From assembly GCA_951406725.2 (NCBI GenBank), contig OX597815.1, positions 197,532,001 through 197,596,000 on the forward strand: a stretch of DNA of 64,000 nucleotides, in the 5' to 3' direction. The DNA is from Octopus vulgaris. Lineage: Eukaryota. A program made the position numbers and the translations under genes. Numbering within the stretch: position 1 is the first letter of the stretch; each line of letters starts with the position of its first letter. Positions 1 to 38,955 of the stretch are shown here, in pieces. The notes below the pieces were generated by a model. It did no database searches. It was not told the DNA's origin and saw nothing but the letters and a program-made list of their open reading frames with translations.

Positions 1-157
1 CTTTTTTCAGTTTCCATCTACCAAATCCACTGACAAGGCTTTGGTCGGTCCGAGGCTATAGTAGAATACACTCGCTCAAGGTGCCACGCAGTGGGACTGA
101 ACCCGGAACCATGTGGTTGGCAAGATATCTACTTAGCACACAGCCACTCCTGCGCCT
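1..157 (-). mobile_element. tRNA-derived SINE family A, 5' half (runs off the window edge)
   Basis: The reverse complement reads GGCGCAGGAGTGGCTGTGTG...GGTTCCGGGTTCAGTCCCACTGCGTGGCACC with A/B-box-like motifs, and matches the copies at 16800, 20026 and 25872. Confidence 0.9.
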
Positions 158-3096: not shown

Positions 3097-4603
3097 CCAG
3101 GAGAGGTTGTATTGTAAGTAGCATGCCTACTTCCGGTTACCCAGAATGCAACAGTAGTTGGTCTGGAGTGTTACAGTGAGAAAGACGCGTGTTTTGGCTC
3201 CGTGAATTGAAAAAACAGAACAAAAAGCAAAATGGTCAATTAAGGCTCGATCTAGCGAGCAAAAATATTGTGTTCTCGTCACCATAACGGTGAATTGAGA
3301 ATTTTTGTTGGAAACTTCTTGGTGTGGCGATTTTTCGCCAAATAATTTGTAAATTCTAGTGGGCGTATCTCGCTAGAAAAAATTGGAATTGACCTAATTG
3401 GAGTACTTCAAGACTAACCCCGACTATTGGATTACCTGTTGGAGTATTATACAAAGGAATCCCTCTGTTCTATTTGTGAGGTTTTCTTTTAATTTTTCCC
3501 TTCTTCCATTTTTTCGTCTTTTCTAAATTTTGGTTCATTCTTTTCATTATTTTAATTTCAGTTTCCTTTTCTTCTCTTTTATTTTGTTTAACTTTTACTC
3601 GGTTTTAATAGTTTGGCGGACTGGTTTTTTTTTTGACATGGCAGAGAAGGAACTTAAAAAGAAAGGAAATTAACCCGCCTAAGCAGTGGTTAAAAGATAT
3701 GGAGGAGAGGACATTGGTGGTTAGAACCGAAAAGGGATTATAAAGGAAGAAGGCGGGCAACAATAGTTGCCCGCCGAAGGACCCTAAGGCTTCGGGAGGT
3801 GGGGAAGAGACTCCGGACAAAGCGGAAGAGCTCCGCTCTCCCGACTTCAGGGAGAAAAGAAAGAAAAGAAAGAAGAACGGGTCATTGCAGGTGGGAGATG
3901 ATGTGCCGTCTGCATGTCCCGAAGTTGTGCCACCCACGGTGGAAGAAATGACCTCCACCGTTAAACATGATGAATTAATTCTCTTTTTCTACTGGGGTGG
4001 GGAGGTGGAAAATAGTAGAACATAAAGAGACAGTAGATATGGACTTCACACGGGATCCCGAATGGCCTCCGCTGATAGTTGTGGAGGTCATAAGGTTTCC
4101 CTTGCGGGAAAGGCTTAAAGGATTTGGGGAGGAGTGTCGCATATGGCCAGGCGGCCTTTACATGACTTGCATGTCCTACATGAGTGAGTAATGGCAAATG
4201 GCGGGATACAGGAACTCAAGCGGCATTGAAGATAATGATGGATATATTGATGGCTATACCGATGAGTAGGAGGTGAAAAAGACTGATTAGAAGGTTTGAA
4301 ACCTCGTCTTATTGCATTATTTGTAGTGGTTTATAACCTCAAATGTGTCATTTAAAGAAAAACATCTTAAGTAAGAGGTTTTAATGCCTCCTTCAGGTTT
4401 GAAACCTCATATTGATTTTTTTTTAAAAAGAAAATATGTATTCGAGAAAAATCCAATCGGTGGGTGTTGGGTTTCGTCTCTCATTTATTCATTTAATTTC
4501 ATTTTCATTCATTAATCTGTTTGTCCAACCCGCAAATCTACACATTCTATTCATGACAAATTTAAGGAAATAAAGTAGCCTGCTTATCAACCACATGGTT
4601 CCG

Positions 4604-4667
<64 letters not shown>

Positions 4668-4860
4668 TTTGTTTGTCCCCCAACATCGCTTGACAACCGA
4701 CGCTGGTGTGTTTACGTCTCCGTAACTTTTGCCGGTTCGGCAAAAAGACCGATAGAATAAGTACTAGGGTTACAAAGAATAAGTCCTGGGGTCGATTTGC
4801 TCGACTAAACGCGGTGCTCCAGCATGGCCGCAGTGAACTGACTGGAACAAGTAAAAGAGT
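3097..4860 (+). mobile_element. SINE family A, split by a 1.44-kb insertion, with its middle part deleted
   Basis: Degenerate head CAGGAGAGGTTGTATTGTAAGTAGCATGCCTAC (3098-3130) resumes at 4573 (AAGTAGCCTGCTTATCAACCACATGGTTCCGGG). The 3' half CAACATCGCTTGACAACCG...GGAACAAGTAAAAGAG runs to about 4860. Confidence 0.85.
3131..4572 (+). mobile_element. ORF1-only L1/Tx1-like non-autonomous retroelement, copy 1
   Basis: Begins (AC)TTCCGGTTACCCAGAATGCAAC, has a T-rich 5' UTR, a broken ORF from ATG at 3638 (MAEKELKKK...) to about 4269 (...YIDGYTDE*), and ends in AATAAA overlapping the TSD. The imperfect 15-bp TSD is at 3116-3130 and 4573-4587. Colinear with 16837-18579. Confidence 0.8.
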
Positions 4861-8469: not shown

Positions 8470-8688
8470 AAGGCTGCTTTCCCGGATTTTCTGGCGCATA
8501 ATCTCCTCCGAACTGGCGGAGTCAGTCGTAGGAATATTCTCACGGTTCCTAGTCAGCTGAGTGGACTGAATCAACCTGAAATGAAATGTTTTACTGAAGG
8601 ACAACGCGCGACCCGTTCCAGGAATCGAAACAACAATCTTATGTTCATGAATTCAAAACACTAACCAAAAACCAATGCGCCTCCACAT
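8470..8688 (-). mobile_element. SINE family C, diverged
   Basis: Reverse-complement similarity to 51287-51430 (CAGCTGAGTGGACTG, GGAATCGAA, CTAACCA). Confidence 0.7.
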
Positions 8689-16540: not shown

Positions 16541-16836
16541 TTAAGTAGAAGACCTTTTTTAACTTCTTGGATGAGAGTATAAAATACATTGTTATTAGTC
16601 CAAGTGGAATTGAAAATATATCCATATTTTGGCAAAAATTTTAGTTTGGCCGCACTACTTTCTGCGCCCGCGAGCAAAAAGTTGATACTTTTGGGGCTAC
16701 TTAACCAAAATTTCACCTTGAACGCTCCACTTTTCTTTCTAGTGTTGTGCTTGAAGAAATACATCAAAATGCAAGGCGATTATGTAGAAAAATTGATTAG
16801 GCGCAGGAGTGGCTGTGTGGTAAGTAGCTTGCTTAC

Positions 16837-18579
16837 TTCCGGTTACCCAGAATGCAACACTAGTTAGTCTGGAATGTTACAGTGAGAAGATGTGAGTTTC
16901 GGCTCCGTGAATAGAAAAAAAGAACAAAAAGAAAAATTGTCAATTATGGCTCACTATAGCGAGCAAAATACTGGGTTCCCATCACCGTAACGGTGAATTG
17001 AGAATTTTTGCTTGGAAATTCTTTTTGTAAATTCTAGTGGGCGTATCTCGCCAGAAAAAGTACAATTTTTCCGAATAAGCCATTTGGATTACCTTTTTGG
17101 AGTATTATACAAAGGATACCCTGTCTGTGCTATTTGTGAGGTTTTTCTTTTACTTTTCCCTTCTTCTATGTTTTCTTTCATTCTAAATTTTGGTTCATTC
17201 TTTTCATTACTTTAATTTCAGTTTCCTCCACTCCTCTTTTATTTTCATCTGGTTTAATTTTTTGGCAGACTGTCTTTTGAACTACTTTTGAACTGTTTTT
17301 TGACATGGCAGAGAAGGAACTTAAAAAGAAAAACTCTGTCTTAGAGTGGGAAATTAACCCTCCTAAGCAGTGGTTAAAAGATATGGAGGAGAAGACGATG
17401 GTACTTAGAACTTATTCTAATGTTCTTAATTCTATCACCGTCTTCCCAAAACAAGTAATAAAAAATGAACTTAAAGAATATTTGTCCTCTTTAAAATATA
17501 TATCCCGTGGTGTCAAAAATGCAACCGTATGTTTGCTGTTTGACAACGGGGAAAAGGCTCGCCTGTTTGCGAGTCATCTTTTAGCAGGCAAGGAAATTCT
17601 GTTCTTTCCGTCATATTGTGGAAGAAAATTAATACGAGCCTGGGTATGTAGATTAACACAAGGCACCGAAGCTGATTGAATTGAAGATACCATCAAACGG
17701 GGACTGGGGGATGGCGGTCCCAGGCTCTTAAATGTAAGGGTATTGCCGGCGGTCGATTGGGAAGGGTCAAAAGCGATGTTGACCTTGTGGACCCCATCGG
17801 CCGCAAGAGATCTGGTTTTTCCAGAGCTCCACTCTCCCGAAGTCAAGGATAAAAGAAAAAAGAAGGAAGAAGAACGGGTCATCTCAGCCGGGAGATGATG
17901 TGCCGACTGCATGTCCCGAAGTTGTGCCACCCACGGGGGAAGAAACCACCCCCACCCTTAAAGATTAATTAATTATCTTTTTCTATAAGGGCGGGGAGGT
18001 GGAAAAATAGTAGAACATAAAGAGACAGTAGATATGCCCTTCACACGGGATCCCGAATGGCCTCCGCAGATAGCTGTGGAGGTCATAAGGCTTCTCTTCT
18101 GGGAAAGGCTTAAAGGATTTGGGGTGGAGAGTCGCATATGGCCGGGTGGTCCTTACACGACTTACATGTCCTACATGAGTGAGGCATGGGAAATGGCGGG
18201 ATACAGGAACTCAAACGGCATTGAAGATAATGATGAATATATCGATGGATATATCGAAGATTAGGAGGTGAAAGACCCTCGTTATAGGGTTTGAAACCTC
18301 ATCTTATTGTATTATTTGCAGTGGTTTATAACCTCAATTGTGTATTTAAAAAAAACATGTTAAGCAAGAGGTTTTATTGCCTCCTTCTTGTAACAGGTTT
18401 GAAACCTCATATTGATTTTTAAAAAAAGAAATTATGCTTTCGAGAAAAATCCAATCGGCAGGTGTTGGGTTTCCTCTCGCCTTTATTCATTCTATTTCAT
18501 TTTCATTCATAAATGTGTTTGTCCAGCCCGCAAGGCTACACACTCTTTGTACTATCTATATGACAAATTTTATGAAATA
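16837..18579 (+). mobile_element. ORF1-only L1/Tx1-like non-autonomous retroelement, copy 2
   Basis: Perfect 15-bp TSD AAGTAGCTTGCTTAC (16822-16836 and 18580-18594), the same termini as copy 1, and no RT or EN motifs. Confidence 0.85.
17305..18264 (+). pseudogene. Putative ORF1 (gag-like) protein of the SINE-inserted element, disrupted
   Basis: ORF 17305-17679 (MAEKELKKK...FPSYCGRK) continues past a stop and frameshifts through a basic, low-complexity linker (KRKK..DDVPTACPEVVPP) into ORF 18034-18264 (RDPEWPP...RIWPGG...YIDGYIED*). The blocks are conserved in copy 1. The ORF1 assignment is inferred from position and composition. Confidence 0.6.
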
Positions 18580-20025
18580 AAGTAGCTTGCTTACGAACTA
18601 TATGCTTCCGGGTTCAGTCCCACTTCGTCGCACCTTGGGCAAGTGTCTTCTACAATAGCCTCAGGCCAACTAAAGCCTTGTGAGTGGATTTGGTAGACGG
18701 AAACTGAAAGAAGCCCGTCGTATATGCGTATATATATGTATATGCATGTGTGTATATATGTTTGTCTGTATTTGTTCCCCCAACATCGCTTGACAACCGA
18801 TGCTGGTGTGTTTTCGCCCCAGTAACTTAGCGGTTCGACAAAAGAAATCGATAGAATAAATACTAGATTTACAAAGAATAAGTCCTGGGGTTGATGTGCT
18901 CGACTAAAGGCGTTGCTCCAGCATGGCCACTGTCAAATGACTGAAACAAGTAAAAGAGTAAAGAATTAATCAACCCCTCGTTTTATTTTAACAATTTTTA
19001 AGAAGGGCGCGTATGCTTTTTGACTTACCCTCGTATTTTCTTAGGTGTTGTCATGTATGCAACAATGTTGAGTATATAATTCTATTTGCTGTTTTGATTT
19101 ATTTCCTTGAATCCTCAACTGTTGTGAATTAAAGTATATAAAAATTCTAAATCAAACTTCCTTGGTTGTCAATTCATGCAGACATGTAGACAATTTACTT
19201 CTAGTAAATCATCTAAATGTCTGCTTATAAATTACATTAAATTCTTACTGAAAATTAAATTTCATAGGATTTTGCTATTTAACTTTGCACTCTTCAAAAC
19301 CGTAATTCGCGTCATATATACACACATATATAAACACACATACGCGCGCACATACAAGCACACACACACTCACAGACACACACACACATGACCGAGCGAC
19401 CCATTTCTTCTCCATAAGAATTGATACACAATGGTTTAGATAGAAGCTAAATGTGTCTCATAACTCATTCATTAACACTGGATAATGCGACTAAATCAAT
19501 AATTATGACAAAATACTGTTCGTTTAATTTACAGCATTTTTTGTGACTAATGAATCTTCTTTGTTTCAATGCGTATAAGAATTACATTTTAATTGTTTAA
19601 CGTTTTTGAGGCTGAGGCTTATTGTTTCAAAATCACCAACAGCGTACCTTGATTTAGAAGTACTCAAATAATTGCCAGTGTATAAAATTTACATTGATAT
19701 ACCAGATCATTTTGTATATTCAATGTAGTACTTCATAAAGCCATTAACCGGTAATACTATTGAAAATATCATACTCACTCCCATTTATATGTTTCAATTT
19801 TGACGTGCGATATTTATTTCCTAATGTACACTCATAACAGTGTTTTCTTTAGGTCATGTATAACTACTCTTCAACATCTAAAAACACTGATGTAGAAATT
19901 CACAAGATCTCTTTTGTAACATTATCATCTTAGAATCGTCCAATCGCTCGACCAGTGTTGCAATTGCAGATGTTGGATACGCGTTCTGTTATATTTGCCT
20001 ACGTCTGCCGTATGACATATACTCT

Positions 20026-20423
20026 CTCTTTTACTCTTTTACTTGTTTCAGTCATTTGACTGCGGCCATGCTGGAGCACCGCCTTTAATCGAGCAACTCG
20101 ACCCCGGGACTTATTCTTTTGCAAGCCCAGTACTTATTCAATCGGTCTCTTTTGCCGAACCGCTATGTAACGGGGACATAAACACACCAGCATCGGTTGT
20201 CAAGCAATGCTAGGGGGACAAACACAGACACGCAAACACACATATATATATATACATATATACGACGGGCTTCTTTCAGTTTCCGTCTACCAAATCCACT
20301 CACAAGGCTTTGGTCGGCCCGAGGCTATAGTAGAAGACACTTGCCCAAGGTGCAACGCAGTGGGACTGAACCCGGTACCATGTGGTTGGTAAACAAGCTA
20401 CTTACCACACAGCCACTGCTGTG
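20026..20423 (-). mobile_element. SINE family A, near complete and uninterrupted
   Basis: Reverse complement of the family A head, internal microsatellite and tail. The target site is empty. Confidence 0.92.
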
Positions 20424-24408: not shown

Positions 24409-24752
24409 GACTGTGTGGTAAGTAGCTTGCTTACCTATTACCTGCTTCCGGGTTTAACCCACTGCGTGACACATTGGGAAAGTGTCTTTTACTATAGCCT
24501 CGGGCCGACCAAAGCCTTGTGAGAGGAGAGAAACTGAAAGCCTCCCGTCGTATATAGATATATTTGTGTGTTTGTGTTTGTCTCCCTAGCGGCGCTTGAC
24601 AACCGATTTTGGCGTGTTTATATCCCCGTAACTTAACGGGAGGGCAAAATAGACCGATAGTCTAGGCCTTTAAGGAATGAGTCCTGGGGTTGATATGCTC
24701 TATTAAAGGCGGTGGTCCAGCATGGCCGCAGTCAAATGACCGAAACAAATGA
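24409..24752 (+). mobile_element. SINE family A, diverged and uninterrupted
   Basis: CTGTGTGGTAAGTAGCTTGCTTAC...CCAAAGCCTTGTGAG...CAGCATGGCCGCAGTCAAATGAC. Confidence 0.85.
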
Positions 24753-25069: not shown

Positions 25070-25602
25070 GGATAGAGAAGGAGAAATAGGGAAAAAAGAA
25101 GGCCATATACGCGCAGCTAACAACAACCATTTAGACTGCACTAACAAATTATTTTCTTCCTTGTATACACAACAAATACGTGCATACAGAAACATACAAT
25201 ATATACACACGCAAAACATATACAGACTGAGACACATACACACAACACACACACGTACATGTATACAAGCATTATTTACATAAAGGCAAGCTTCACACCT
25301 TATATTCAAAATATATACTTACTCATTGTAAACTTGTTGTATGCTTAAAACTTATAAGCCCTAATTGATATAGGCAGTAATTCAATAAATTTCAATCATA
25401 TTCACGAGTTTGAGGTAAAATAATTAGTTACTAGAGTATCTGAATGTATTTTTCTCAGCACATAATTTATTTACATCTTCAAAAACCAATCATGCTCTAC
25501 GGTTGTATATATCTGCAGGTGCATTTCACACACACGCATAGACACGTGCGCGAACAAACATGCATTATCATATATTTTTGTTTTGAAATTATATTATTTT
25601 AT

Positions 25603-25829
25603 TCTTTTTTTTTGTTTCAGTCATTTGACTGCAGTCATGATGGGAAACCGCCTTAGAGGAGTTTAGTCGAAGTAATCGACTTTGGCACTTATATTTTCTA
25701 AGCCTAGTACTTATTCTTTCAGTATCTTTTACCGAACCGTTGAGTCGCGGGCTGGAACGTAAACAGTAACGTAGGTTGTCAATCGATGATGGAGGAGGGG
25801 AGGCAAAGACGCGAATACACACACATACA

Positions 25830-25835
<6 letters not shown>
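25603..25835 (-). mobile_element. SINE family A, 3' half, diverged
   Basis: TGTTTCAGTCATTTGACTGC...AGTACTTATTCT...GGTTGTCAA. Confidence 0.7.
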
Positions 25836-25871
<36 letters not shown>

Positions 25872-25874
<3 letters not shown>

Positions 25875-26278
25875 TCTTTACTCTTTTAATTGTTTCAGTC
25901 ATTTGACTGCGGCCATGCTGGAGCACCGCCTTTAGTCGAGCAACTCGACCCCGGGATTTATTCTTTGTAAGCCCAGTACTTATTCTATCGGCCTCTTTTT
26001 GCCGAACCGCTAAATGACGGGGACATAAACACACCAGCATCGGTTGTCAAGCAATGCTAGGGGAACAAACACAGACACACAAACATACACACATACATAT
26101 ATATATACATATATACGACGGTCTTCTTTCAGTTTCCGTCTACCAAATCCACTGACAAGGCTTTGGTCGGCCCAAGGCTATAGTAGAAGACACTTGCCCA
26201 AGGTGCCACGGAGTGGGACTGAACCCGGAACCATGTGGTTGGTAAACAAGCTACTTACCAGACAGCCACTCCTGCGCC
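25872..26278 (-). mobile_element. SINE family A, full length and uninterrupted
   Basis: Complete reverse-complement copy ending ...CAGCCACTCCTGCGCC. Confidence 0.92.
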
Positions 26279-37537: not shown

Positions 37538-37599
<62 letters not shown>

Positions 37600-37609
<10 letters not shown>

Positions 37610-38955
37610 TTTGAAAAGTGTAATGCAAAGCGCGAAACTTTAAAAGTAATTCTACACCCTCTTCCAATAGCGAACGTGATTTGACAATAGCCATCAGTTC
37701 TTCGGAGAGGTTTCTGTGCAGAAGTTTTGACAATTCTGGTTCATTTGGAAGGCTTAATTAGTTGTATCTCTTAATGAATCCAGTCATCATGCAATTGAAA
37801 GTATCTTCGATATAATGTAGAGTCGTGAATGAGACGTTTAGTAGAGATTAGATTAGGTTTATTAAGGATAATACCCTTAAGATAGGAAAATAGTTATAAC
37901 GGGAAACGTTGCCAGAATCTTTTGCGCAACACTATATCATATACCAGGTTACGTATCTAGGATACTTGGTGAACACCGAGGAGAGAATTGCGATCTCGCA
38001 TCCCGCCGGAGTTATAATGAGACTGCACATTTGTGCAGGCATCCACAGGACTTTGCGGAAACTTGTTGGGCGCCAAATATTTACCGGGGGAGGAAAATCC
38101 AATTCTCAGACAAAATTTCTGCCAGGCCAAGATTCCGAAGCTGATCAGCCAAGAAGGAAACCGATCACCGATAACGGAACTTGTGAGAGATACATGCGCC
38201 CCAATGTTGAGACAAGGTGGGGAAGGCATTATATAATATGCTAAGGCCCACACTTTTATTGTCATATGAATCCGTATATATATATACTTTGAAAAGTGTA
38301 ATGCAAAGCGCGAAACTTTAAAAGTAATTCTACACCCTCTTCCAATAGCGAACGTGATTTGACAATAGCCATCAGTTCTTCGGAGAGGTTTCTGTGCAGA
38401 AGTTTTGACAATTCTGGTTCATTTGGAAGGCTTAATTAGTTGTATCTCTTAATGAATCCAGTCATCATGCAATTGAAAGTATCTTCGATATAATGTAGAG
38501 TCGTGAATGAGACGTTTAGTAGAGATTAGATTAGGTTTATTAAGGATAATACCCTTAAGATAGGAAAATAGTTATAACGGGAAACGTTGCCAGAATCTTT
38601 TGCGCAACACTATATCATATACCAGGTTACGTATCTAGGATACTTGGTGAACACCGAGGAGAGAATTGCGATCTCGCATCCCGCCGGAGTTATAATGAGA
38701 CTGCACATTTGTGCAGGCATCCACAGGACTTTGCGGAAACTTGTTGGGCGCCAAATATTTACCGGGGGAGGAAAATCCAATTCTCAGACAAAATTTCTGC
38801 CAGGCCAGGATTCCGAAGCTGATCAGCCAAGAAGGAAACCGATCACCGATAACGGAACTTGTGAGAGATACATGCGCCCCAATGTTGAGACAAGGTGGGG
38901 AAGGCATTATATAATATGCTAAGGCCCACACTTTTATTGTCATATGAATCCGTAT
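37600..38955. repeat. Near-perfect 678-bp tandem duplication
   Basis: Units 37600-38277 and 38278-38955. Matching ORFs are offset by 678 bp, and I found one difference (A38130 vs G38808). Confidence 0.95.

Follow-up and report, generated by a model that had tools for sequence, protein, structure and literature searches.

Two copies of one insert interrupt two copies of one short interspersed element (SINE) at the same base in the Octopus vulgaris stretch analysed here (assembly GCA_951406725.2, contig OX597815.1, positions 197,532,001 to 197,596,000; 64 kb, hereafter the window). This raises the question of whether the SINE is a specific target. The results suggested that the insert is very probably a decayed copy of a long interspersed element (LINE) that codes only for open reading frame 1 (ORF1), sits at one SINE base genome-wide and is likely carried in trans by the apurinic/apyrimidinic endonuclease (APE) and reverse transcriptase (RT) protein of an autonomous Tx1-type LINE. 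The ORF1-only element of the window inserts was named family A; B, C, D and E denote other element families at the same base.

One SINE base in the window and in the genome

The insert at 16837-18579 is flanked by identical 15-mers, AAGTAGCTTGCTTAC, at 16822-16836 and 18580-18594. The original prediction took them for a perfect 15-bp target-site duplication (TSD) of a 1743-bp insert; the identity stands, but the 5' copy is likely partly donor-encoded and not wholly a duplication of the target. The second insert, at 3131-4572, occupies the same SINE base, and its flanking 15-mers (3116-3130 and 4573-4587) show 2 mismatches, in agreement with the decayed TSD that had been proposed. The two inserts are alike at 1194 of 1356 aligned columns (88%). 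Within 500 bp on each side of both filled SINEs, only chance matches of 14-20 bp are held in common, so the flanks are unrelated, as had been claimed. The SINE copies starting at 1, 20026, 24409 and 25872 were likewise confirmed to be empty at the site, the copy at 1 having an altered target. Compared with full-length copies, the two inserts carry complementary internal deletions, and each retains sequence lost from the other. Therefore, neither was copied from the other, and both derive from longer elements.

The features are listed below. Coordinates are positions in the window.

16800..18962, plus strand: host SINE, split by the 1743-bp insert
16800..16836, plus strand: host SINE head, with the A box at 16810-16820 and the 5' target 15-mer at 16822-16836
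16837..18579, plus strand: family A element (ORF1-only, non-autonomous), an internally deleted copy of a unit of about 2.05 kb
17305..18264, plus strand: broken ORF1-like gene within the 16837-18579 insert, its N-terminal part predicted as two RNA recognition motif (RRM) folds
18265..18581, plus strand: 3' untranslated region without poly(A); AATAAA at 18576-18581 spans the element/target junction
18580..18594, plus strand: 3' copy of the target 15-mer
18595..18962, plus strand: host SINE remainder, with the B box at 18611-18621, core, microsatellite and tail
3098..3130, plus strand: degraded SINE head, with the 5' target copy at 3116-3130 (2 mismatches)
3131..4572, plus strand: second family A copy, with an internal deletion different from that of the 16837-18579 copy
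4573..4860, plus strand: degraded host SINE remainder, with the 3' target copy at 4573-4587 (2 mismatches)
1..156, minus strand: empty SINE copy, cut by the window start, with altered target
20026..20421, minus strand: empty SINE copy
24409..24748, plus strand: empty SINE copy with exact target
25872..26278, minus strand: empty SINE copy, the SINE reference used in scripts

The genome (2.8 Gb, 227 contigs) was searched with family A end queries without flanks. The target lay directly upstream of the 5' end in all of the 40 best matches (self included); 35 of these were preceded by SINE heads, and 5 by the 3' end of another element plus one target copy. At the 3' end, the target lay directly downstream in 30/30 examined (the best 30 of 40 listed), followed by SINE sequence in 28 and by another element in 2. 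Exact 3' 20-mers, taken without ranking, continued into the exact next 7 target bases in 81 of 110 cases, about the proportion expected from a decay of a few percent per base. The genome-wide flanks of the insert are thus the SINE site, as the original prediction required. Kojima 2015 recognised a target preference when more than 20% of flanks agree, and this value was exceeded by family E (30/30), family A (30/30 and 40/40) and family B (26/30). Three variants of the SINE target were found among filled sites. Over these variants, exact patterns gave 68,883 empty sites and 651 filled 3' junctions, a filled share of 0.94%.

Two side observations concern the window itself. Another degraded SINE tail, at 25597-25870, adjoins the copy at 25872. 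At 37597-38955 there is a 681-bp tandem duplication with 99.85% identity, either a very recent duplication or an assembly artefact.

The ORF1-only element and its probable autonomous partner

Family A copies with both ends were mostly 2.0-2.1 kb long (34 loci, range 1656-5344 bp). The coding span was mostly 1200-1290 bp within the unit of about 2.05 kb, and the frame was broken in every copy. No match to family E ORF2 was found in these 34 loci at an E-value threshold of 0.01. The gene of the window copy contains a stop at 17677-17679, frame shifts and a deletion of about 300 bp near 17823-17825, which removes a CCHC knuckle found in other copies. This knuckle (CX2CX4HX4C) is present in both family A and family E ORF1, with a Pfam zf-CCHC value of only 0.35, and a Pfam search with the window ORF pieces gave nothing significant. 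The family A ORF matches family E ORF1 at 24% identity (E-value 1e-16). A protein model of family A, built from 8 sequences, had a predicted local distance difference test score of 66.7, and its best PDB matches were tandem RRM proteins (E-value 1e-4); the N-terminal part is accordingly predicted as two RRM folds. An ORF1 with RRM and CCHC knuckle is a feature of the Tx1 clade. The closest named relative of the insert protein was from Octopus sinensis (59%), and related ORFs were recognisable across families A, B, C and D. A 91-aa C-terminal frame was considered as a remnant of ORF2 and rejected; it prolongs the ORF1 frame in L039 and had no ORF2 match. The elements show a fixed 3' end, variable 5' truncation and target-site duplication, as products of target-primed reverse transcription do.

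ORF1-only families B, C, D and their relatives, which use the same base, were found via tandem loci. Families C and D showed 65-75% DNA identity to family A in the ORF, and the target adjoined 26 of 30 family B 3' ends. The autonomous partner with APE and RT that the original prediction called for was found in family E, which shares the 3' tip and the target. Family E, represented by L129, was reached by walking down stacks of elements. It is 5.44-5.48 kb long and contains ORF1 and an ORF2 with APE, RT and zf-RVT domains (PF03372 Exo_endo_phos, PF00078 RVT_1, PF13966). Its copies are 98.6% alike (1.4% difference), and the ORF2 frame is open over 1140-1150 codons in 5 of 20. The best solved relative of ORF2 was L1 ORF2p (4e-67, versus 1e-19 for R2). 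The target adjoined all of the 30 best family E 3' ends, 28 with at most 2 mismatches and 2 with one extra base; of the 441 query bases, 8 belonged to the target, and the junctions were re-read without these. The last 20 bases or so are similar in families A, B, C and E. The same SINE base is occupied by at least five distinct families. By its ORF2 domains, family E is an L1/Tx1-type non-LTR retrotransposon, the Tx1 label denoting domain content and not a place in an RT tree of named families.

Other routes to the partner were tried. A search with zf-RVT returned other families as its best 30 copies; these served as a control, and only one of them, inside a stack, adjoined the target. A junction pattern guessed on the assumption that the partner shares the ending of the other families had 0 matches. 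As to expression, contigs from runs guessed to be RNA cover family E; one starts 29 bases inside the SINE head, below the 31-base bridging bar, and was not used. Among other zf-RVT LINE families, copies with shared downstream flanks were seen (L070, L075, L077, L089; L084, L090; L068), a hint of further target preferences for other repeats or the 3' ends of other elements. At L135 (G000:C2:73.04-73.06 Mb), four LINE copies of about 5.4 kb stand head to tail in an array that lacks the SINE target; in some of them ORF2 is open. The first 15 bases or so are common to families A and B (L018:14-45; L132, minus strand, near oriented position 8531), and the family B 5' end resembles a captured piece of a TTCC-type target. 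This suggests that 5' ends were built from old target flanks and swapped between families.

Junctions, proposed insertion mechanism and rival explanations

The position of the site was investigated by tRNA alignment, in which the 15-mer begins with the 3' strand of the D-stem and ends in the middle of the anticodon. The 3' end of the element joins the host SINE directly after the A box. The site had been placed between the A and B boxes in an anticodon-loop-like CTTAC; it does lie between the boxes, but only the right end of the 15-mer falls within the loop. The predicted breaking of the RNA polymerase III (Pol III) promoter needs a correction, as the SINE head is likely co-transcribed with the element and not merely broken. 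The SINE may act as a safe harbour, as was also proposed. The SINE head aligns in register with genomic tRNAs and has both boxes, yet ARAGORN and Rfam made no tRNA call for it. The aligned tRNA types matched at most 8 of the 15 target bases (counted by eye; 20 of 30 fetched tRNA loci, 7 isoacceptor types). At L236, seven tRNAs (six Cys, one Ser) were called close together, within 3 kb. The host SINE may be OR1 or OR2. The octopus tRNA-derived SINEs OK, OR1 and OR2 (Ohshima and Okada 1994; CORE-SINE remark in PMC4758252) share the tRNA head and very high abundance, and are likely the class of the host SINE.

At the 5' junction, CTAAC precedes the element in 17 of 17 full-length family E copies, 7 of which have a TTAC-type 3' copy. 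Genome-wide, exact family E 5' junctions carry TAAC in 58 of 62 cases, versus 13 of 28 for the 3' copies (two tandem junctions omitted). This donor-type TAAC indicates that the RNA likely begins in the donor SINE head and that the 15-bp "TSD" at full-length copies is likely partly donor-made; for family A, an RNA start in the SINE head is suggested by analogy. Some full-length family E copies have one extra base where target and donor meet, and in L217 an additional complete SINE head is attached through a 3-base overlap. In family A, four extra target-type bases stand ahead of the first base at L112/L140, and seven copies start at base 7 via a 4-base overlap. Truncated copies have duplications of about 7-17 bp. 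At the 3' junction, the first two bases of the target supply the end of AATAAA. No added A-run was seen by eye at the 3' junctions inspected for families A, B and E; one family B copy (L091) has repeated AAAAT.

The following mechanism is proposed from these junctions. The first step would be a bottom-strand nick by ORF2p (CTT/A), directly after the A box, where the 15-mer has its left edge. The RNA would begin upstream of the element, in the donor SINE head, and be polyadenylated downstream of the junction-spanning AATAAA, so that it ends in some read-through target bases. Pairing of these bases with the nicked primer would make the 3' junctions precise to the base and leave them without a tail. 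A full-length complementary DNA would then join the top strand by homology and in doing so might duplicate part of the head or replace it. Copies truncated at the 5' end show duplications of about 7-17 bp. The ORF1-only families would be recognised via the common 3' tip. Each insertion would leave two target copies, and their re-use could build stacks.

Contact with another element was found at 5 of 40 family A 5' ends, 4 of 30 family E 3' ends and 9 of 26 on-target family B 3' ends (2 more ambiguous). With about 1% of sites filled, these rates mean that mixed stacks are far commoner than occupancy would give. The stack at C7:13.45-13.49 Mb spans about 30 kb, and its elements, which come from several families, are linked by 12 copies of the target. 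One rare form of the target was counted 7 times there and twice elsewhere among 260 loci; such repetition within one stack favours serial duplication of the local site. Candidate reasons for the preference for filled sites are better nick context, local expression or, for same-family runs (L166-L168), later tandem duplication. Two further observations were made in stacks. An autonomous family that is otherwise non-targeting is represented by one copy at L133-L134 (G000:C7:13.478-13.484 Mb), with the identical target variant and following bases on both sides. At L138 (L007:1265-1500), a family D element and a full family A copy enclose a 215-bp family A 3' fragment, which follows 10 bases of the target.

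A wider interpretation is offered tentatively and is somewhat doubtful: a guild of SINE-addicted LINEs may exist, for which the SINE head is landing site, transcription start and homology guide at both RNA ends, and whose junction completes the poly(A) signal. If so, only a correctly placed copy would be fully functional. Filled sites would attract insertions far above chance, so that a 400-bp SINE could grow into a stack of several families, tens of kb long. The whole would be a parasite system of three tiers, with retroposons as both target and targeter.

Several observations weigh against the proposed trans-mobilised, SINE-specific element. The target is missing at 4 of the 30 family B 3' ends. 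L208 and L222 have no SINE head on the 5' side, L208 having SINE body upstream, and the 3'-end loci L032, L036, L038, L047 and L056 have 5' breaks in unrelated DNA, which we read as later deletions or insertions, although this is not proven. Families A and E are visibly alike only in the last 20 bases or so, with an ORF1 identity of only 24%. Family A copies (about 7% apart) are older than the sampled family E copies (about 1.4%); therefore, an ancestor of family E, and not these copies, would have moved family A. No sequencing run recorded as RNA contained family E. L217 is the only clear duplicated head, since L215 is ambiguous and may be slippage. The 5' and 3' 15-mers of family A are mostly discordant where either varies, with 2 concordant variants (L171, L188); decay explains the discordance, which gives no positive proof for family A. 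The Mantel tests reported below are low-powered on star-like data.

The history of inserts and hosts was compared by distances. For family A (30 of 35 loci kept; 5 left out for short SINE or insert cover), inserts differed by 0.063 and host SINE bodies by 0.127, hosts being more diverged in 431 of 435 pairs; Mantel r was -0.12 (p 0.76), with a residual of 0.02 (p 0.30). For family E (19 of 21 loci kept; 9 loci chosen for a TAAC flank), the values were 0.013 and 0.076, hosts were more diverged in 170 of 171 pairs, and the Mantel test was not significant. Outside the search queries, insert distances were 0.070 (A) and 0.014 (E). Because hosts are about twice as diverged as inserts and the distances are uncorrelated, the insertions are independent, and the predicted incongruence of insert and host histories was found. 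It is therefore hardly credible that a single ancestral insertion joined SINE and element into a composite and that all later copies arose from it as one unit, and this explanation was rejected on host-versus-insert divergence. The likely co-transcription of the SINE head and possible segmental duplicates (L043/L044, L099/L100, L103/L104/L106) would suit such copying, but host bodies are about 2 times (A) and 6 times (E) more diverged than inserts, and the hosts of nearly identical family E copies belong to at least two diagnosable SINE subfamilies. Filled sites also cover three target variants, and at least five distinct families share the base. In addition, 5'-truncated copies stand directly behind the SINE head (L042, L045, L048, L223, L230), and such copies at the target were used by Kojima 2015 (PMC4494074) as a test against hitchhiking.

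The remaining rivals concern what is recognised. A loose L1-like nickase might cut many CTT/A sites, with only nicks that pair with the RNA being extended; specificity residing mainly in RNA-DNA pairing is rather unlikely, although target bases are likely present at both RNA ends, the 3' junctions have no tail, the nick context is L1-like, and pairing of the RNA 3' end with the target has been argued for R1Bm/SART1Bm (PMC7265360). Against it, mismatches are tolerated: TTAC and GTTTAC hosts receive family E copies from TAAC-type donors, and one stack re-used a target with a local mutation 7 times. Xenopus Tx1L, for which a target-specific endonuclease has reportedly been published, was also counted against pairing. 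Tethering of the protein to Pol III factors on the SINE instead of to DNA sequence, as with TRE5-A or Ty near tRNA genes (PMC3706591, PMC13269885), agrees with a nick directly after the A box. It is quite improbable, since tethered elements insert at a distance from the target and insertion here is base-precise; moreover, in stacks of 12 targets over about 30 kb, most sites lie at a great distance from any intact pair of A and B boxes. Very improbable is a tRNA gene as the true target with the SINE insertions as collateral. The SINE head is probably tRNA-derived and is in register with tRNAs, and Dada transposons are known to target tRNA genes, but no tRNA-gene flank was found among the element junctions inspected (best family A 5' and 3' ends, family B and E ends), and the tRNAs of the 7 isoacceptor types match the target poorly, as given above. 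Within these junctions and types, no sign was seen that real tRNA genes are also hit, a point raised in the original prediction.

Comparison with known systems

Targeting of other transposons by Tx1 elements and ORF1-only LINEs are already known; what appears to be new is a SINE as target, which was not found in print. The search covered literature, with Repbase/Dfam and subscription papers outside its scope, and a catalogue entry may exist. No SINE-targeting LINE appeared in the relevant parts of PMC13269885, PMC12247875 and PMC4758252. An octopus repeat survey described 13 recently active L1-Tx1 families, and its main text contains neither the word "target" nor "nested" (PMC13282606). The SINE would thus be a new target class for sequence-specific LINEs. 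The system offers young copies with open frames, and its dated targets, which number in the tens of thousands, fall into subfamilies that differ inside the recognition site. It allows tests of the APE domain against RNA-DNA pairing in specificity, of 5' end joining, of the persistence of ORF1-only elements, and of whether a targeting LINE drives or follows target change. For annotation, cephalopod repeat libraries will represent such composites and stacks wrongly, as long SINE models or chimeric consensus models.

Small-RNA-gene targets have been described for mobile elements (PMC3706591, PMC4640811, PMC8869645), and Keno (U2), Mutsu (5S), Dewa (tRNA-Leu spacer) and Kibi/Koshi (microsatellites) are named as specific LINEs (PMC4494074, PMC3706591). 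The octopus system resembles these in base-precise insertion of an APE-type LINE into a multicopy small-RNA-type sequence. Their targets are host genes, spacers and simple repeats, whereas the octopus target is a retroposon with evolving subfamilies. In the R1/R2 elements of ribosomal DNA, flanking target in the RNA is likewise needed for accurate insertion or transcription (PMC7265360, PMC4494074); R1/R2 belong to different clades and have a host-gene target, and the octopus case is drawn from junction sequences only.

HAL1 (half-L1) is a non-autonomous LINE derivative coding only ORF1p (PMC5753468, citing Bao and Jurka 2010), and family A is likewise ORF1-only without ORF2. HAL1 is mammalian and L1-derived, and its account in PMC5753468 does not mention target specificity, whereas the octopus ORF1-only families have a strict target and a 3' tip in common with a Tx1-type partner. 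With an octopus host and family E as partner, family A is not HAL1 proper, which originates from mammalian L1.

The crocodilian elements Tx1-Mar, Tx1-9_AMi and Tx1-8_Crp and Xenopus Tx1L are Tx1-clade APE elements that prefer other transposons, namely Mariner-N4, Harbinger, LTR (long terminal repeat) elements and piggyBac Tx1D (Kojima 2015, PMC4494074). In the Tx1-Mar group, too, non-autonomous passengers (SINEU) go to the same target, insertions stand in tandem around one TSD, and transcription from the flanking target was proposed (PMC4494074). Tx1-Mar uses two regions, whereas the octopus target is a single base, in one orientation, of a probably tRNA-derived SINE head with about 69,000 exact empty sites, and the octopus passengers are ORF1-coding elements of 1.5-2 kb, not SINEs headed by small nuclear RNA. 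By analogy, the octopus system would work like Tx1-Mar plus HAL1, with a Tx1 kinship of resemblance and not of phylogenetic placement.

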